In this document: positions 1 to 7,114 of the stretch, one piece after another
How positions within the stretch are numbered: the stretch's first letter is position 1
How the letters are laid out: every line of letters begins with the position of its first letter
Assembly: GCA_963769885.1 (NCBI GenBank)
Contig: CAVYNH010000001.1
Span: 13,234 to 77,233 of the forward strand
Reading direction: 5' to 3'
DNA from: Methanobacteriota archaeon
GTDB taxonomy: Archaea > Thermoplasmatota > E2 > DHVEG-1
Length of the DNA stretch: 64,000 bases
The notes under the pieces: model-generated
What the model saw: the letters and a program-made list of their open reading frames with translations, nothing else
What the model was told of the DNA's origin: nothing
Database searches by the model: none
Translations under genes and position numbers: made by a program

Positions 1-30
1 TGTAGTGGGAAATCAGTAGTGGGAAATTTA
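1..30 (+). repeat. Left terminal inverted repeat (2 x ~14-bp GTAGTGGGAAAT unit)
   Basis: Read directly; inverted match to 5322-5364. Confidence 0.85.
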
Positions 31-35
31 GATGG

Positions 36-545
36 TTATGTTATAACTGATATGATGAAAGGACAGACATCCTTAATTATCCAATGAACTGTTGTTATAA
101 TCATTAATGTTAACCAGATTATGGTAAATGTTAATGGTACAAAAAATGATACAATTAAACCAGAACTTATTTTTGTTAAGAATTTTCTACAACCTAAAGC
201 TTCATCAATTTCGTTATATGTTCCTTTCTTAAAATTTTTATTTGAAGTAAAACAACCATTACAATCTGTGAATATTTTAGTCTCTAATTTTCTTCCTTCA
301 TTTTCTGCTATAAGAATATGGGCATATTTTCTATGCAAAATAAAGAACCAGAAAATACTTATTATAAAACCAGTAAAACAAACTATTACTGCTGCAATAT
401 TTATTTTATTTATTATTTGAGAATAGCCTGCGAATAATAAGGATATGACAATAATATAAAAATGAAATGAGTCCCAATATCCTTTATCCCATCTTTCCCA
501 AATTGAAATAATTGAATTGTATTGTCTTATTTCTTTTTCACACAT
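36..545 (-). CDS. Small multi-pass membrane protein, RipA/Rip1-like
   Basis: 169 aa with 3 hydrophobic helices. The pattern Y...W..F..V.S.L / G.IIS..W......Y........R.LE..I resembles RipA-family octameric membrane proteins (recalled similarity, not searched). Confidence 0.55.
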   Translation of the reverse strand: MCEKEIRQYNSIISIWERWDKGYWDSFHFYIIVISLLFAGYSQIINKINIAAVIVCFTGFIISIFWFFILHRKYAHILIAENEGRKLETKIFTDCNGCFTSNKNFKKGTYNEIDEALGCRKFLTKISSGLIVSFFVPLTFTIIWLTLMIITTVHWIIKDVCPFIISVIT

Positions 546-742
546 AAATATGTCCTCTATCTCTATTCTTCTGAATGTATGTAATTTTTTATTTTTTAAA
601 TATTTTGTGTATTTTAGGTTTGCAAACTATTTTAAAAACAAATGACATTGATGTTCTTGCCATCCCTATCATTAAGCTCATATGTTTCGCCAAAAAACTT
701 ATGTAGTTTTTTCGATAGGGATGGTAAAAAATTTAATCTGTT

Positions 743-2042
743 TTAATCTCCATCAGTGTAGTAACCAAGAATTTCAATGAAATCTTTTTTGGAGGAGTTG
801 ATGAATTTATCCTGTATCCTGGCTATGCCGTTGTCATTTATTGCGTCCCTGACTTCTTTTACTTCTTGGCATCTACTGTAGAACAAATGTTCCTTACTCC
901 ATGCACTCCATAGATGCGGGTCTATCTTGTTAAAAAATGCGCCACCATATACTTCATTAATCTTTGAACATCGGGGCAACCGCATTTTAACGGTTTATTT
1001 TTAATCTTATTTGCTTTTACCAATTCCATTCGTTTTCTGTCATAATATGATCTGAATTTTGAAGATTTACCGCTACCGCCATAATCATTAATGTAACCAT
1101 TTAATGGTTCGATGAAACCGTCAAATCCAGTGGATATACATGGTATGGCATATGCATCCGCATCTATCAAGAAAGTAAATTTATTGTTAAATTCAGCCGC
1201 TTCCTGAATAGACTTGGAAATGTTCCGAGGTTTCTTCTTACATCGGTATCATTCAGAGGGAAGTATTTTATTTTGATGAAAATGATTTTTACGTTCTCAT
1301 ATTCTCCGTCTACGTCCATTAAGAAATCTGTGATTTTTTTAAGTTGATCTAAATTCCGTAATGCTGAATAATTGAGGTTAAAATAGAAAGATGGTTCAAG
1401 ACCAAAGGTATCCGCTATAGTGAAAGCGGATTTTTTATTTACATCAATTGCTATATCTATTAGAGGGGAGTTTTCACCCTCGATAAATGGTACGAATGGT
1501 ACTATTGCATCAGGTTGATATTTATTTTGTTCTCTTACATTCCAGTTGATGACTGTAGTAGTATCTCCTGAGTTATACAGTTGTTGCCACATCTTAGTAT
1601 AATTCGCATATGTTGATTTGGTTAAAAAATCAGAAATTTTTTGTGGGAGTGACGGCAGATTTTTATATTGCGTTCTTTTTTGCTTGTTGTTTAGATAAAC
1701 ATATTCCGTGTTTGGATCAATGAAAACAGGGAGGATGCCTTTTAAGGTTTTAAAATCATAGGAAATCATTGGGATTAAACGTGTTTGTTTAGGATTGAAT
1801 ATTGTTTTCTCTCTGTTCAATGATGATACATTTAATATATCAAAAAATATTCCTTGGAAATAGTCATTTATTTTCTTTTCATCAATAATTATGTCAAGTT
1901 CTTTTGATGTTCTTATCTTAGGGATATAACAGGGTGTTTTGATTGTTTTATTGTTTAAATTGATCGTTGTAATTCTTGCGTTGTTTACTTTCTTTTCAGG
2001 ATAGATCATCACTTGGGTTGATCTTTTTACTTTTTCTTTCAT
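743..2042 (-). pseudogene. TGT (queuine/archaeosine tRNA-ribosyltransferase, DpdA)-fold protein of ~433 aa, split by 2 frameshifts
   Basis: ORFs 1167-2042, 922-1170 and 743-985 join by adding one base near 1217 and one C in the C4 run near 975, restoring CGCPRC. N-terminal ARITTINLNNKTIKTPCYIP resembles the TGT start; the C-terminus has a CxCxxC...H zinc site. The frameshifts may be sequencing errors. Confidence 0.6.
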
Positions 2043-2529
2043 ATGCTATCGACCTCTTTTTTAATATTTTTTAAATGTAATATTAGTTCATCGAGTTGGT
2101 TTGCATTTAACATCAATCCTCCGACAATGGTAAAAATATTGTATTCATCTCTTGTTTTTTCTTGGATATACACAAATTTACCAAAAGGGTTTTCGATCAA
2201 TTGAAAGTTATAATATTTTTCACCTATTTTTACATCTTTTATTAAAGTTGGATGGGCTACTTTTCCATTAGGATAATAGAGGAAATTTCTTTGACTAAAC
2301 TGTCGCCTATACAACTCTCTGATCGCTGTAAGGTAATCTAAAGTTGAGATGCGGTTCTGCGATCAATCCCTGCAACATCAGATACTTGAGGTAAACTAAT
2401 TCCTTGTGGATTATCTTTAACAACTTTTAATATGATTGAACAAGCAAATCTTTTTCTATCTTCGGGAGACATTTTTTTTAATTCCTCTTTTGAAAATCCG
2501 ATTTGACTTCTATTTATTGCGTCATCCAT
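2039..2529 (-). pseudogene. Winged-helix protein fused to a PUR/PC4-like domain (~163 aa), one frameshift near 2343
   Basis: MDDAINR...GISLPQVSDVAGIDRRTASQ continues as LDYLTAIRELYRR... after a +1 correction. The C-terminal KYYNFQLIENPFGKFVYIQE...LMLNANQLDELI resembles a PUR repeat. The stop overlaps the next start (ATGA). Confidence 0.55.
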
Positions 2530-2688
2530 TGTTTTTCTCCTTGTAATTTTATATACAACATTAAGATGCACATACCTTGTGCATAGTTATGTTGTACAGT
2601 TGATGTTGCACATAAACGGTTATTATATATATAAAGATAACTGATAGCTTTATATACTGACAATGTATTATAAAACTTGGCGAAATAT

Positions 2689-3847
2689 ATGGGCAACAAA
2701 ATAGATATTAAAGAAATGGTTAACGCAGAAAAGCTAGAGGCATGACACTTTTAGAACAAGGAATAGAACCAACCGAGATTAATCCGCATACGTGGATAGT
2801 GCCAAGTCAGACAGGAAATGGAACATATCAAGTTGATGTCCAGATGCGGTATTGGCATTGTACATGTCCAGATTTTGAACTAAAAGTATTGTAAACACAT
2901 CAATGCGGTTAAGATATGGAAGAACCTGAAAGAGAAATTTGAACAAATACATCTCAAAGTGAAACAGAAAATTACGTTAACAGATATTGATGTTGATTGC
3001 TGTAAGTTTTGTCATTCAACAGAAGTGACAAAATATGGGATGAAAAATAGTAAACAAGTCTATTTCTGTAAGACCTGTAATCGAAGATTTGTCAATAATG
3101 TTGACTTCGAGAATATGAAATATAACCCTAAGATAATCGCATTAACGCTTGATCTGTATTTCAAAGGAATAAGTCTCAGGAAAATAAGCCAACATCTAAA
3201 ACAATTCTATGAACTGAATATAAGCCATAAATCAGTTTACAACTGGATAGAAAAATATGTAGGGATAATGAATGAATACGTCAATGAAATACAACCTGAT
3301 ATTGGGGAAGTATGGCATACTGACGAAATGATGATTAAAATAGATGGCTCATGGAGACCTCTGGAATGTCATGGACGAACGTACACGGTTTCAACTCGCT
3401 TCTGTGGTATCAAAAGAACGATATGTTAAAGATGCACGTATGGTATTTCAGAAGGCAAAAAAGAACTGCGGTGGACGCAAGCCGAAGTTCATGGTTACCG
3501 ATGGTCTACCCGCATATAGGGATGCGGTGAACAAGGAGTTTAAAACTAATACTGATGAAACAGAACACCTATGGAATGTGGGGTTACAGCACCATCCAAA
3601 TAACAACCACATTGAAAGATTACATGGGACAATACGGGATCGTGAAAAAACATTTAGAGGGTTAAAGATAGAAAGTACCCCTATTATTGATGGGAACAGG
3701 ATTTACTACAATTTCATAAAACCACATGAAAATCTTGATGGTAAAACTCCGAGTGAGGAATCGGGAATAATCATTGAAGGAAATAATAAATGGCTTACTC
3801 TTATGAAAAAATCAATTCAGTACCAAAAGGCTAAAAATCAGAATTGA
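2689..3847 (+). pseudogene. SWIM zinc finger + zinc ribbon + DDE (IS6/IS240-like) transposase, 3 frameshifts
   Basis: Reassembled reading: SWIM CTCPDF...CKH, CKFC..CKTC ribbon, HTH, WHTDE, VTDG, NNHIERLHGTIRDR, YYNFIKPH. Frameshifts near 2727, 2890 and 3358. Confidence 0.85.
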
Positions 3848-3878
3848 AAAGTTATATAATTCAAATGGAGATTTAAAA

Positions 3879-5321
3879 ATGGAAAACATGCAAATAAAAA
3901 CCGATACTATTTACTGCGGAGATTGCCTTGATGTATTGAGGCGATTTCCAGAAGGATTTGTAAATTTAATTTATCTTGATCCACCATTTTCAAGTGGCAG
4001 GATTTATAATATAGTGTTTGGCACTAATAGCGAAAAAAAAGCCTTTGATGATCGATGGAAAGGTGGTATTCATCATTATATTGAATATATGAGGGAAAGA
4101 CTCGAACTCTGCCATCGTGTTTTGGACAGTAAAGGGTCGATTTATTTACATTGCGATAGTCATGCAAGTCATTATCTCAAAATAGTGATGGATGATATTT
4201 TTGGTTATAATAATTTTAAGAATGAAATAATTTGGAAAAGAAAAGATGCTCAAAGTTTCACCAATAAATATGGAGCTATGCATGATACGATTTTATTTTA
4301 TACAAAATCAAATGAGTACACGTTTAACAAAGCATTAGAAGAGTACATTCCACTTAGCGAAGAAACCGCAGATACTTGGTATAAATATGAAGAAATTGCA
4401 TCGAAAAATATTATTAATCGTCTTGGGAAAAAAATTGAAAAAGGACATGTAAGACGATACAATAAAGGTGATATAAGCGCACCTGGGGATAGGCAAGGTA
4501 CGGCAGCGCATTATAAATGGAACGGAAAATATCCACCAAAGGGGAGACATTGGGAATATACGGTTGAGGTGATGGGGAGATTGGAAAGAGAAAAACGTCT
4601 TGCTTATTCTAAGAATGGAAGGGTTTATGAAAAGCGATATTTAGATGAAACAAAGGGGACACCTCCTCAAGACATTTGGACTGACATTTCTATGTTGCGT
4701 GGAATGGGTAAACATAGTGAAAAAAGTGAATGGATGGAATACCCAACTCAAAAACCAAAACGTTTACTTGAAAGAATAATACGGATTTCCTCAAATGAAA
4801 ATGACATTGTACTTGATCCTTTCTGTGGCTGTGGTACGACTATCGTTGCAGCACATTATTTGAGGAGAAAATGGATTGGTATTGATATTTCACCTACTGC
4901 ATGTAATGTCATAAAAAATCGTATGGGAAATGTAAAAAAAATGGGATTGTTTGTCGTGAAAAACATTCCTATAATTGGACTCCCAAAGACAGAAGATGAT
5001 CTTAGAAAATTGCATCCTTTCGAGTTTGAAAACTGGGTATGTGATGTTCTTTTCGCTATTCAGACGAAGAAAGCAAAAGACATGGGTATTGATGGATATA
5101 CTATTGATGGAACAGTTCTCCAAGCAAAACAAATGGATAAAGTAGGAAGACCCATAGTAGATAATTTTGAGGCATCAATGAAGCGAGCTAAAACCAATAA
5201 AGGCATAGTTATTGCTTTTAGTTTTACTAAAGATGCTTTTGAAGAGGTTGCAAGAATAAAAAGCGAGAATATAGATATTACATTAAGATCAGTAAAAGAA
5301 TTATTAGAAATGGGTTTCTAA
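3879..5321 (+). CDS. N6A/N4C DNA methyltransferase fused to a C-terminal Mrr-like endonuclease domain
   Basis: DPPF catalytic motif, YPTQKP, DPFCGCGTT SAM motif. C-terminus FEFENWV..DMGIDG..LQAKQ..VGRP..GIVIAFSFTKDA is Mrr-like. Confidence 0.9.
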   Translation: MENMQIKTDTIYCGDCLDVLRRFPEGFVNLIYLDPPFSSGRIYNIVFGTNSEKKAFDDRWKGGIHHYIEYMRERLELCHRVLDSKGSIYLHCDSHASHYLKIVMDDIFGYNNFKNEIIWKRKDAQSFTNKYGAMHDTILFYTKSNEYTFNKALEEYIPLSEETADTWYKYEEIASKNIINRLGKKIEKGHVRRYNKGDISAPGDRQGTAAHYKWNGKYPPKGRHWEYTVEVMGRLEREKRLAYSKNGRVYEKRYLDETKGTPPQDIWTDISMLRGMGKHSEKSEWMEYPTQKPKRLLERIIRISSNENDIVLDPFCGCGTTIVAAHYLRRKWIGIDISPTACNVIKNRMGNVKKMGLFVVKNIPIIGLPKTEDDLRKLHPFEFENWVCDVLFAIQTKKAKDMGIDGYTIDGTVLQAKQMDKVGRPIVDNFEASMKRAKTNKGIVIAFSFTKDAFEEVARIKSENIDITLRSVKELLEMGF

Positions 5322-5364
5322 TCTGATACCACTACAGATTTTCCACTACTAAATTTCCACTACA
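5322..5364 (-). repeat. Right terminal inverted repeat (3 x 14-bp unit)
   Basis: CCACTAC cores at 14-bp spacing, ending ...CCACTACA. Confidence 0.85.
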
Positions 5365-5389
5365 GTATTACACAGCACCCTGTTCAGAT

Positions 5390-5450
5390 AGGTTTATATA
5401 GAAGTGTCCATATGCTGGGAATGCTTTTAACCTACTTATAAAGGAGGCAT
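5390..5450 (+). promoter_or_regulatory. Putative TATA box and Shine-Dalgarno of the thermosome gene
   Basis: TTTATATA near 5393; AGGAGG shortly before the ATG at 5459. Confidence 0.45.
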
Positions 5451-5458
5451 AGAACAGT

Positions 5459-7114
5459 ATGATGGCTGGAGGACAGACACCCATAATCATCCTTAAAGAA
5501 GGCACGAAACGCGAAAAAGGCAAAGGCGCCCAACTCAACAACATCATGGCAGCCCGCGCAATCTCCGACGCCGTGAAATCCACGCTCGGACCCAAAGGCA
5601 TGGACAAGATGCTCGTCGACTCCATGGGCGACGTCGTCATCACCAACGACGGCGCCACCATCCTCAAAGAAATCGACGTCGAACACCCCGCCGCAAAAAT
5701 GATCGTCGAAGTCGCCAAAGCCCAAGACGAACAATGCGGCGACGGCACCACCACCGCCGTGATCCTCACCGGAGAACTCCTTCGCAACGCCGGCGAGCTC
5801 ATCGAACAGAACATCCATCCCACCGTCATCACGGGCGGATACCAGAAGGCGGCCATAAAGGCGGTCGAAATCCTCAACAAGATGGCGATCCCGATCAAGC
5901 CCAACGACAAAAAAACGCTGAAGAACATCGCCATGACCTCCATGGCCAGCAAGGGAGCCAGCTCCGCAAAAGCAATCCTCTCCGACGTCGTCGTCGACGC
6001 GGTCACCAGCGTCGCCGAGAAAATCGATGGACGCACCGAAGTCGACATGGACAACATCCAGATCCAGAAGAAACAGGGCGGTAGCATCAACGATACCAAG
6101 ATCATCAAGGGCATCATCCTCGACAAGGAACGCGTCCACGAAGGCATGCCCAAGCACGTCCACAACGCCAAGATCGCCTTGGTCAACGCCGCTTTAGAGA
6201 TTAAGAAGACCGAGGTCGACGCCCGCATCCAGATCCAGGACCCCAGCCAACTCCAGGCCTTCCTCGATGAGGAAGAGACCATGCTGAAGAAGATGGTTGA
6301 AAAAATCAAGAAGAGCGGGGCCAACGTCCTCGTCTGCCAGAAGGGCATCGATGACATCGCCCAGCACTTCCTCGCCAAAGATGGCATCTACGCGGTCCGG
6401 CGCGCCAAGAAATCCGACATGGACAAGCTCGCCAAGGCCACCGGCGCAAAGATCGTCGCCAACCTCGACAACCTCAGCGTCAAGGACCTCGGACAGGCTG
6501 GCGCCGTCGAAGAACAGAAGATCGGCGACGACCGCATGACCTTTGTTGTCGACTGCAAGAACCCCAAGGCCGTCAGCATCCTCATCCGCGGCAGCACCGA
6601 ACACATCGTCGACGAGCTTGACCGCGGCATGCACGACGCCCTCTTCGTCGTCAAAGTCGCCCTCGAGGACGGGAAGATGACCGCCGGCGGCGGCAGCGCA
6701 GCCACCGAGATCGCCATGCAGCTGCGCGAGTACGCCACCACTGTCGGCGGCCGCGAGCAGATGGCGATCGAGGCGTTCGCCAACGCGGTCGAAGTCGTCC
6801 CCAAGACCCTGGCGGAGAACGCGGGTCTTGACCCCATCGATATGATGATCAACGTCCGCCGCGCCCACAAGAAGGGCAACAAGTACGCTGGCATCGACGT
6901 CTTCAACGGCAAGATCACCGACATGATTGACAACAACGTCGTCGAGCCGCTGCGCGTCAGCGTCCAGGAAGTCACGGCATCCACCGAAGCCGCCAACATG
7001 ATCCTGCGCATCGACGACATCATCGCCTCCAAGAGCGGTGGCCCAGCGCCCGGCGGCCCCGGCGGCATGCCAGGCGGCCCCGGCGGTATGGGCGGTGACA
7101 TGGACGAGTACTAA
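5459..7114 (+). CDS. ths: Thermosome (group II chaperonin) subunit
   Basis: TLGPKGMDKML, ITNDGATIL, GDGTTT motifs; GGM-rich tail. Confidence 0.98.
   Translation: MMAGGQTPIIILKEGTKREKGKGAQLNNIMAARAISDAVKSTLGPKGMDKMLVDSMGDVVITNDGATILKEIDVEHPAAKMIVEVAKAQDEQCGDGTTTAVILTGELLRNAGELIEQNIHPTVITGGYQKAAIKAVEILNKMAIPIKPNDKKTLKNIAMTSMASKGASSAKAILSDVVVDAVTSVAEKIDGRTEVDMDNIQIQKKQGGSINDTKIIKGIILDKERVHEGMPKHVHNAKIALVNAALEIKKTEVDARIQIQDPSQLQAFLDEEETMLKKMVEKIKKSGANVLVCQKGIDDIAQHFLAKDGIYAVRRAKKSDMDKLAKATGAKIVANLDNLSVKDLGQAGAVEEQKIGDDRMTFVVDCKNPKAVSILIRGSTEHIVDELDRGMHDALFVVKVALEDGKMTAGGGSAATEIAMQLREYATTVGGREQMAIEAFANAVEVVPKTLAENAGLDPIDMMINVRRAHKKGNKYAGIDVFNGKITDMIDNNVVEPLRVSVQEVTASTEAANMILRIDDIIASKSGGPAPGGPGGMPGGPGGMGGDMDEY

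Follow-up and report, generated by a model that had tools for sequence, protein, structure and literature searches.

A mobile archaeal gene pair encoding a winged-helix/PUR-like protein and a predicted TGT-fold protein that lacks the transglycosylase nucleophile

Two overlapping genes on an IS6-family element

The window, by which we mean the whole 64,000-nucleotide stretch of archaeal DNA analysed here, carries near its left end five ORF pieces on the minus strand (743-2529). Repair of three single-base frameshifts turns them into two genes, which lie within a transposon together with the following features.

1..27, plus strand: left terminal inverted repeat, inner part; the repeat itself begins outside the window, 15 bases to its left, preceded by the 8-bp duplication CTGTTCAG
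36..545, minus strand: 8xMP-family membrane protein; variable cargo, not in the sister element L004
743..2042, minus strand: predicted TGT-fold, zinc-binding protein, 433 aa when intact; in this arm, 1-base deletions at ~1218 and ~977
2039..2042, minus strand: ATGA stop/start overlap of the 163-aa and 433-aa genes, pointing to translational coupling
2039..2529, minus strand: winged-helix plus PUR-like repeat protein, 163 aa when intact; in this arm, 1-base deletion at ~2343
2551-2561: weaker third operator site
2589..2613, no strand: tandem palindromic operator ATGT-N3-ACAT over the inferred transcription start (2603-2613 exact, 2589-2599 with one mismatch)
2628..2635, minus strand: sequence-inferred TATA-like box for the two-gene operon
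2649..2656, plus strand: sequence-inferred TATA-like box for the divergent transposase gene
2677..3847, plus strand: DDE transposase of the IS6 family, pointing away from the pair; frameshifted in the window arm
3879..5321, plus strand: fusion of an N6/N4 methyltransferase with an Mrr nuclease, part of the element's variable cargo
5338..5387, minus strand: terminal inverted repeat of the right end, up to 5379, followed by the 8-bp target duplication CTGTTCAG at 5380-5387

The original prediction had assembled the five pieces into two ATGA-overlapping genes, and a second copy of the locus bears this reconstruction out. The first 9.7 kb of the contig (C1) mirror the next 9.7 kb with 98.9% identity (C1:1-19450; window 1-6200 lies in one arm). 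The mirror arm has unbroken 163-aa and 433-aa frames with the ATGA overlap, from which the window arm differs by the single-base deletions at ~2343, ~1218 and ~977 and a few substitutions. Since unbroken 433-aa homologues also occur in independent assemblies (P0002, 95-96% identical, and L061), the three frameshifts are most likely long-read sequence errors. Both genes are under purifying selection, with dN/dS values of 0.07-0.10. A pseudogene reading was considered and is ruled out by the unbroken mirror arm, the unbroken independent assemblies and a dN/dS below 0.1. The mirror arm begins in the middle of a thermosome gene, suggesting that the mirrored end of C1 is probably a fold-back artefact of assembly or reading. 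The two arms diverge heavily only within the transposase gene (about 90 positions), which suggests that other strains or IS copies were mixed in during polishing.

The element that holds the pair measures 5.4 kb; its terminal inverted repeats begin GG(T)TCTGTGTAA, and the 8-bp duplication CTGTTCAG flanks it. The DDE_Tnp_IS240 transposase, the GG-starting repeats and the 8-bp target duplication place the element in the IS6 family; a close homologue of the transposase, in L004, has a SWIM domain. Repeat-bounded elements carrying the pair are also found in L004, L049 and L067, in agreement with its earlier description as mobile cargo. This cargo is optional, because two further IS6 elements of the same genome, on contigs C4 and C6, have intact ends and target duplications and no pair; the same elements rule out the idea that the pair is needed for transposition. 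Downstream of the pair and co-oriented with it, the 8xMP gene is a possible extra effector cargo of the element. The sister element lies on a 52.8-kb contig (L004) with a BglII-type RM system instead of the methyltransferase-Mrr fusion and many small unknown genes around; PHROGs matched only two of ten, and the contig is possibly a virus or plasmid. All three IS6-family composite elements of the genome have their 8-bp duplications 4-5 bases upstream of a TATA-like box (window 5380-5400, thermosome gene; G000 C4:271651-271671, ribosomal protein L3 operon; G000 C6, L051:13585-13606, third gene), a hint that these elements choose promoter-upstream targets. Just left of the window (C1:13202-13218), another end resembling a repeat (TTACACAGAACC) lies directly against the target duplication and suggests a tandem or remnant element next door.

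The neighbours of the pair vary by locus and include IS6, BREX, Dnd, OLD, GAPS4-type nuclease, RM, dCTP deaminase, Nre and integrase genes. It is from this neighbourhood only that an antiviral role may be suggested, and some pairs, such as that of L044, have no obvious defence or mobile target nearby. The absence of preQ0 synthesis and dpdBC genes near the pair, already remarked upon in the original prediction, holds across loci: neither QueC/D/E nor DpdB/C is among the best 25 of 93 families listed for 123 neighbouring proteins. Elsewhere, the host genome encodes QueC and its own arcTGT. A four-gene set recurs divergently from the pair (L071:5157-7835, L090:2470-5128, L066:1042-3717), in which a 140-aa and a 200-aa gene (probably accounting for three dCTP deaminase matches) face genes for a 400-aa HExxH protein and a 135-aa helical protein. 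The 400-aa HExxH proteins have no Pfam match, and the set is a candidate for an undescribed defence system.

Fold and residues of the 433-aa protein

A profile search retrieved 123 clusters of homologues of the 433-aa protein, mostly of 410-460 aa. We modelled the protein from a 99-sequence alignment (pLDDT 92), setting aside an earlier, poor model from 6 sequences (pLDDT 50). The closest structural matches are archaeosine TGT (1iq8, Z 27.6) and bacterial TGT (3unt, Z 27.1), followed by QTRT2 (6fv5, 22.0), Cap10 (9ntn, 18.9) and DpdA (7ui4, 16.5), whereas other TIM barrels reach Z 13 at most; the top five VIA matches all belong to the TGT family. Foldseek matched the model to archaeosine TGT with an E-value of 1e-10, and the family profile retrieves arcTGT by sequence with an E-value of 1e-12. 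The TGT-type TIM barrel first claimed from the letters alone is thus upheld by predicted structure and fold search, and the model has the barrel, the TGT-specific N-terminal hairpin and the C-terminal zinc subdomain of a TGT fold. The ESM Atlas (rows 2 and 4) adds Bacillota proteins of 665-683 aa with a fused Ser/Thr kinase domain, which match the TGT-like model at TM 0.70-0.71. No fusion proteins of the family itself were found among lengths of up to 816 aa, and PADLOC gave one weak match among 99 members. The deep family alignment is too divergent for pattern search; a pattern scan of genome contigs with the 291-aa piece found nothing.

The motifs previously read from the sequence, AR..KTPCYIP, FIDPNT, GFDGFIE and CxCxxC...H, are present in the protein. 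The last provides the zinc ligands C354, C356, C359 and H386, which are missing from some homologues. We mapped the remaining residues on TGT by sequence profiles rather than superposed coordinates. As had been proposed, FIDP falls on the DSG motif of archaeosine TGTs and GFDGFIE on GxDxFD. D109 thereby corresponds to arcTGT D95, the general acid/base Asp of the DSG motif after strand 3, and is kept in 103/117 homologues (compared at <70% identity). The other two acidic residues of the active site are replaced. The base-reading Asp after strand 4 (DpdA D130) aligns, in a lower-confidence part of the alignment, to the Pro of a PPxP motif, and the nucleophile Asp of GxDxFD (arcTGT D249, DpdA D256) is I311. 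Position 311 is acidic in none of the 117 homologues; E312, one residue off the nucleophile position, occurs in about half of the family, leaving 59/117 with no acidic residue at either 311 or 312.

These three active-site Asp are reported to be invariant in both TGT and DpdA (PMC10164549), and Cap10 keeps its D73, D122 and D248 (10.1101/2025.04.06.647259). Because the nucleophile and the base-reading Asp, invariant in TGT and DpdA and kept in Cap10, are both missing, the protein fails, on sequence, as an active transglycosylase despite its fold; the base exchange that was first offered as one of three functions is contradicted. Most members nevertheless keep D109, E113, N202, Y220, K257 and a WNxxRRxH helix, which counts against a pure sensor switch, since an enzyme could also explain it, and 82 of the 117 have the complete D-E-K set (D109, E113, K257). 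K257 maps to the glycine-rich loop in the profile alignment to arcTGTs and is replaced by Arg in about nine of the 117 homologues. In one clade, unbroken and still paired, D109, K257, D308 and the zinc ligands are all gone, and none of the pocket residues is shared by all 117 homologues. The second function offered, a glycosylase, is accordingly disfavoured, no catalytic residue being universally kept; a Schiff-base mechanism through the Lys, which we also considered, is weakened by the natural K257R change and by the residue loss in this clade. The third, a sensor, fits best.

The protein therefore has to be set against each known use of the fold. Archaeosine and bacterial TGTs share its TIM barrel, N-terminal beta-hairpin, CxCxxC...H zinc site and D95-equivalent Asp, at 12-14% identity; it differs from them by the replacement of the nucleophile Asp with Ser, Val, Ile, Thr or Cys, the Pro in place of the base-reading Asp, the Lys at the glycine-rich loop and the lack of C-terminal PUA domains, as well as by being mobile and paired with a regulator in a host that retains its own arcTGT. 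QTRT2 resembles it as a non-catalytic TGT-fold subunit working via a protein partner, but the partner of QTRT2 is an active TGT, whereas here it is a predicted DNA-binding protein. DpdA has a TGT-derived fold and defence-island settings in common with it; unlike the pair, DpdA has all three invariant Asp and works with DpdB and DpdC, and no DpdA model in PADLOC or Pfam matches any of the 99 members. Cap10, of type IV CBASS, is a TGT fold remodelled for a protein partner in defence, which binds a deazaguanylated CD-NTase made by the QueC homologue Cap9 (10.1101/2025.04.06.647259); neither QueC nor a CD-NTase was seen beside the pair. TIM-B (PF14350, the P4 beta protein) is a TGT-related barrel for which a regulatory role within two-gene conflict modules has been proposed (10.64898/2026.10.19.760177), but the partner in our pair is a transcription factor by prediction and not a toxin or nuclease effector, and the nucleophile is missing. 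PF14350 (Beta_protein) is not among the best 25 of 31 families listed for the 99 members at an E-value of 0.1, the others matching at most one member each. By the tests run, the protein has a TGT fold and yet lies outside TGT, DpdA, Cap10 and, as judged by profile, TIM-B.

Partner, operator and distribution

Residues ~25-88 of the 163-aa protein match winged-helix families and structures, in support of the winged helix proposed for it. The PUR/PC4-like domain claimed for its other half fares less clearly: residues 90-163 match only PUR structures in the PDB (7/7), but with E-values of 0.015-0.32, so that the C-terminal half is marginally assigned as a PUR-like repeat. Repeats of the PUR/PC4 family are beta-rich with a C-terminal helix, and they dimerise and bind single strands. 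Compared with PUR-alpha and the Borrelia PUR repeat, the archaeal protein would have one repeat only, joined to a winged helix, with nucleic-acid binding as a prediction. The protein has no effector domain, and a pattern scan of viral contigs with it found nothing.

We then analysed the DNA upstream of the operon. The palindrome ATGT-N3-ACAT recurs there across distant archaea, often double at 13-bp spacing and just after the TATA box. The 34 upstream regions analysed hold 26 exact sites, where shuffled sequence predicts 0.25, and 14 of these regions hold at least two, against 0.56 expected; the remainder of the loci has 0.0008 sites per equal length. The operator tracks the RxT(I/V)xKHL recognition helix, accompanying 16/21 proteins with this helix and 1/10 without (hand-scored, and with relatives that are not independent). 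The conservation of the operator, a feature that the original prediction missed, marks the 163-aa protein as an autoregulatory transcription factor by predicted binding. Many paired loci have no exact site. Genome-wide, tandem sites in AT-rich, promoter-like placement are found only at the pair locus and its mirror, apart from two weaker pairs in which each site has one mismatch; hence the sequence gives no sign of a wide regulon. In viral contigs the tandem pattern occurs in 23 stretches, none carrying either gene, so that by itself it is no predictor of the genes in such contigs.

A model of the 433-aa protein with two copies of the 163-aa protein scored 0.62, while the best of three controls scored 0.00. 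This mark is reached by 58/80 solved complexes and 2/110 mismatched pairs, a calibration that is only roughly valid here; contact agreement between runs is at least 0%, one of the three runs having given no result, and the pLDDT of the partner is at least 80. The predicted interface places repressor residues 10-41 against barrel residues 158-176 and 200-215, which lie in outer helices; it names none of the pocket residues. The model supports direct docking of the N-terminal helices of the 163-aa protein on the TGT-fold protein, away from the pocket. In one clade of stand-alone repressors, the N-terminal segment is cut to 23-29 residues, against ~35-50 in paired copies.

That the two genes co-occur, as the original prediction required, is seen from either side, with exceptions. 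Distant TGT-fold homologues whose contig was examined have the partner directly upstream in all cases except P0005 (the gene upstream of P0006 is unscored). Conversely, the TGT-fold gene comes next, mostly overlapping, in 32/32 partner clusters with enough downstream DNA, a set largely retrieved with paired queries. The exceptional P0005 (L002:10001-11308) is an unbroken TGT-fold gene with all conserved residues, present on 5 contigs, which has no partner or operator on its contig and adjoins peptidase C25/PKD genes. The named hosts include Micrarchaeota and Woesearchaeota MAGs, and a clear pair is found in 6/401 genomes of the host's own phylum. The phylum of a Woesearchaeota MAG (Nanobdellota) was sampled evenly at 401 genomes, 11 of which have the partner: five are paired, six hold seven stand-alone copies and one copy is ended by the contig edge. 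The copies that stand alone fall into two clades, nested among paired copies; five of the genomes holding the lone copies, which are incomplete, have no full-length TGT-fold match. L163, L175, L176, L177, L178 and L179 are such stand-alone winged-helix/PUR-like regulators of DPANN, one clade having a tandem duplicate. Obligate pairing is ruled out by these copies; judged from gene order, the coupling is tight rather than obligate. We regard the pair as a real, uncharacterised module, no description of which was found in the literature searched, whose coverage is incomplete.

Candidate functions of the pair

We give about even credence to the reading that the pair is an autorepressor with a non-catalytic TGT-fold (pseudo-TGT) co-regulator or sensor, like CapH/CapP or CapK/CapS. 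The 163-aa protein would dimerise through its single PUR-like repeat, and its winged helices would bind ATGT-N3-ACAT over their own transcription start, repressing the operon. The 433-aa pseudo-transglycosylase would dock by its outer barrel helices on the N-terminal helices of the repressor, leaving the remodelled pocket and a basic zinc helix free. In the weakest step, it would bind, as its signal, a nucleotide or nucleic acid (a piece of tRNA, or DNA in single-stranded, damaged or modified form) and thereby alter the grip of the repressor. The altered grip may then tune the operon and probably also neighbouring, often divergent, transposase or defence genes; this control of neighbours is among the weakest steps as well, because a divergent upstream gene is present in only 15/21 loci (related loci included) and the sites at the transposase promoter, with two mismatches, are at chance level. 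That the dead TGT fold reads a nucleic-acid signal, for instance invader DNA carrying damage or modified bases, and through the winged-helix/PUR repressor switches on adjacent defence systems and transposases, is a tentative proposal which may well be wrong; if true, it would make the pair a new class of immune or mobility regulator in archaea. The likeness to CapH/CapP, CapK/CapS and CapW/BrxR is functional only: those are compact repressors with a sensor beside varied defence operons and with palindromes at their own promoter (PMC13373217), and enrichment of the operator suggests that the archaeal pair has such palindromic sites too. The neighbours of CapH/P and CapK/S likewise change from locus to locus (PMC13373217). 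The pair, by contrast, is archaeal and shares no domain with these systems, as no family match was found to peptidase, kinase, STAS or WYL domains.

The best surviving alternative, which we consider rather unlikely, is a toxin-antitoxin or abortive-infection pair. The TGT-fold protein would then be an effector with novel chemistry, perhaps a glycosylase or lyase that acts on tRNA or DNA by means of D109, E113 and K257, and the winged-helix protein an antitoxin that binds it and autorepresses the operon. Regulator-first order, the ATGA overlap, the operator and the predicted direct binding are all typical of such operons, the module is carried on transposons, and the D-E-K set is widely kept. 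Against this reading, P0005 stands unbroken and complete in its conserved residues on 5 contigs, with neither partner nor operator there; the predicted docking site leaves the pocket uncovered; and a catalytic Lys or Asp can hardly be essential when K257 is naturally Arg in some members and one paired clade lacks the entire set.

A lone TGT-fold gene would do no harm if the protein were a negative regulator like TIM-B, a reading that we find improbable. A preprint puts TIM-B (PF14350, phage P4 beta) in the deazaguanine-transglycosylase fold, as negative regulator of linked effectors (10.64898/2026.10.19.760177), and the place of the TGT-fold gene after the repressor in all 32 clusters of the first set would suit such a role. 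Against it, PF14350 is not among the families listed for the 99 members, TIM-B keeps active-site-equivalent residues (10.64898/2026.10.19.760177) where the family described here has no nucleophile, the 163-aa protein lacks an effector domain, and repressors stand alone in several (incomplete) Nanobdellota genomes with no full-length TGT-fold match.

Still less probable is an element-specific controller, that is, a dedicated transposition factor or RM controller of the IS6 element. The pair does occur in repeat-bounded elements (window, L004, L049, L067) and is divergent from a transposase in six loci, and a small regulator with tandem operators before an overlapping gene recalls C-protein operons, which have this layout. 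However, the C4 and C6 elements have intact ends and target duplications and yet no pair, and many pairs have no transposase or methyltransferase nearby. Finally, a DpdA-like exchange that would put host-made preQ0 or archaeosine into DNA is very improbable: the fold, the equivalence of D109 to D95 of both arcTGT and DpdA, the QueC and arcTGT of the host, the frequent RM neighbours and an E312 one residue from the nucleophile position are outweighed by the two missing Asp, by a weaker structural match to DpdA (Z 16.5) than to the tRNA enzymes (Z 27), and by the lack of a DpdA model match among the 99 members and of DpdB/C or Que among the listed neighbour families.

The switching of defence islands and transposons in archaea is barely known, and the tested sensor-repressor pairs (CapH/P, CapK/S, CapW/BrxR) are bacterial. 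The pair offers a candidate regulator whose operator is defined to 11 bp, whose repressor is small and whose docking surface is predicted, and it cautions against labelling such TGT-fold genes DpdA. Were the toxin reading true, it would bring new base chemistry on a TGT scaffold. If the regulatory reading is true, a non-catalytic regulator would be a new use of the TGT fold, after the tRNA enzyme, the DNA insertase, Cap10 and TIM-B.
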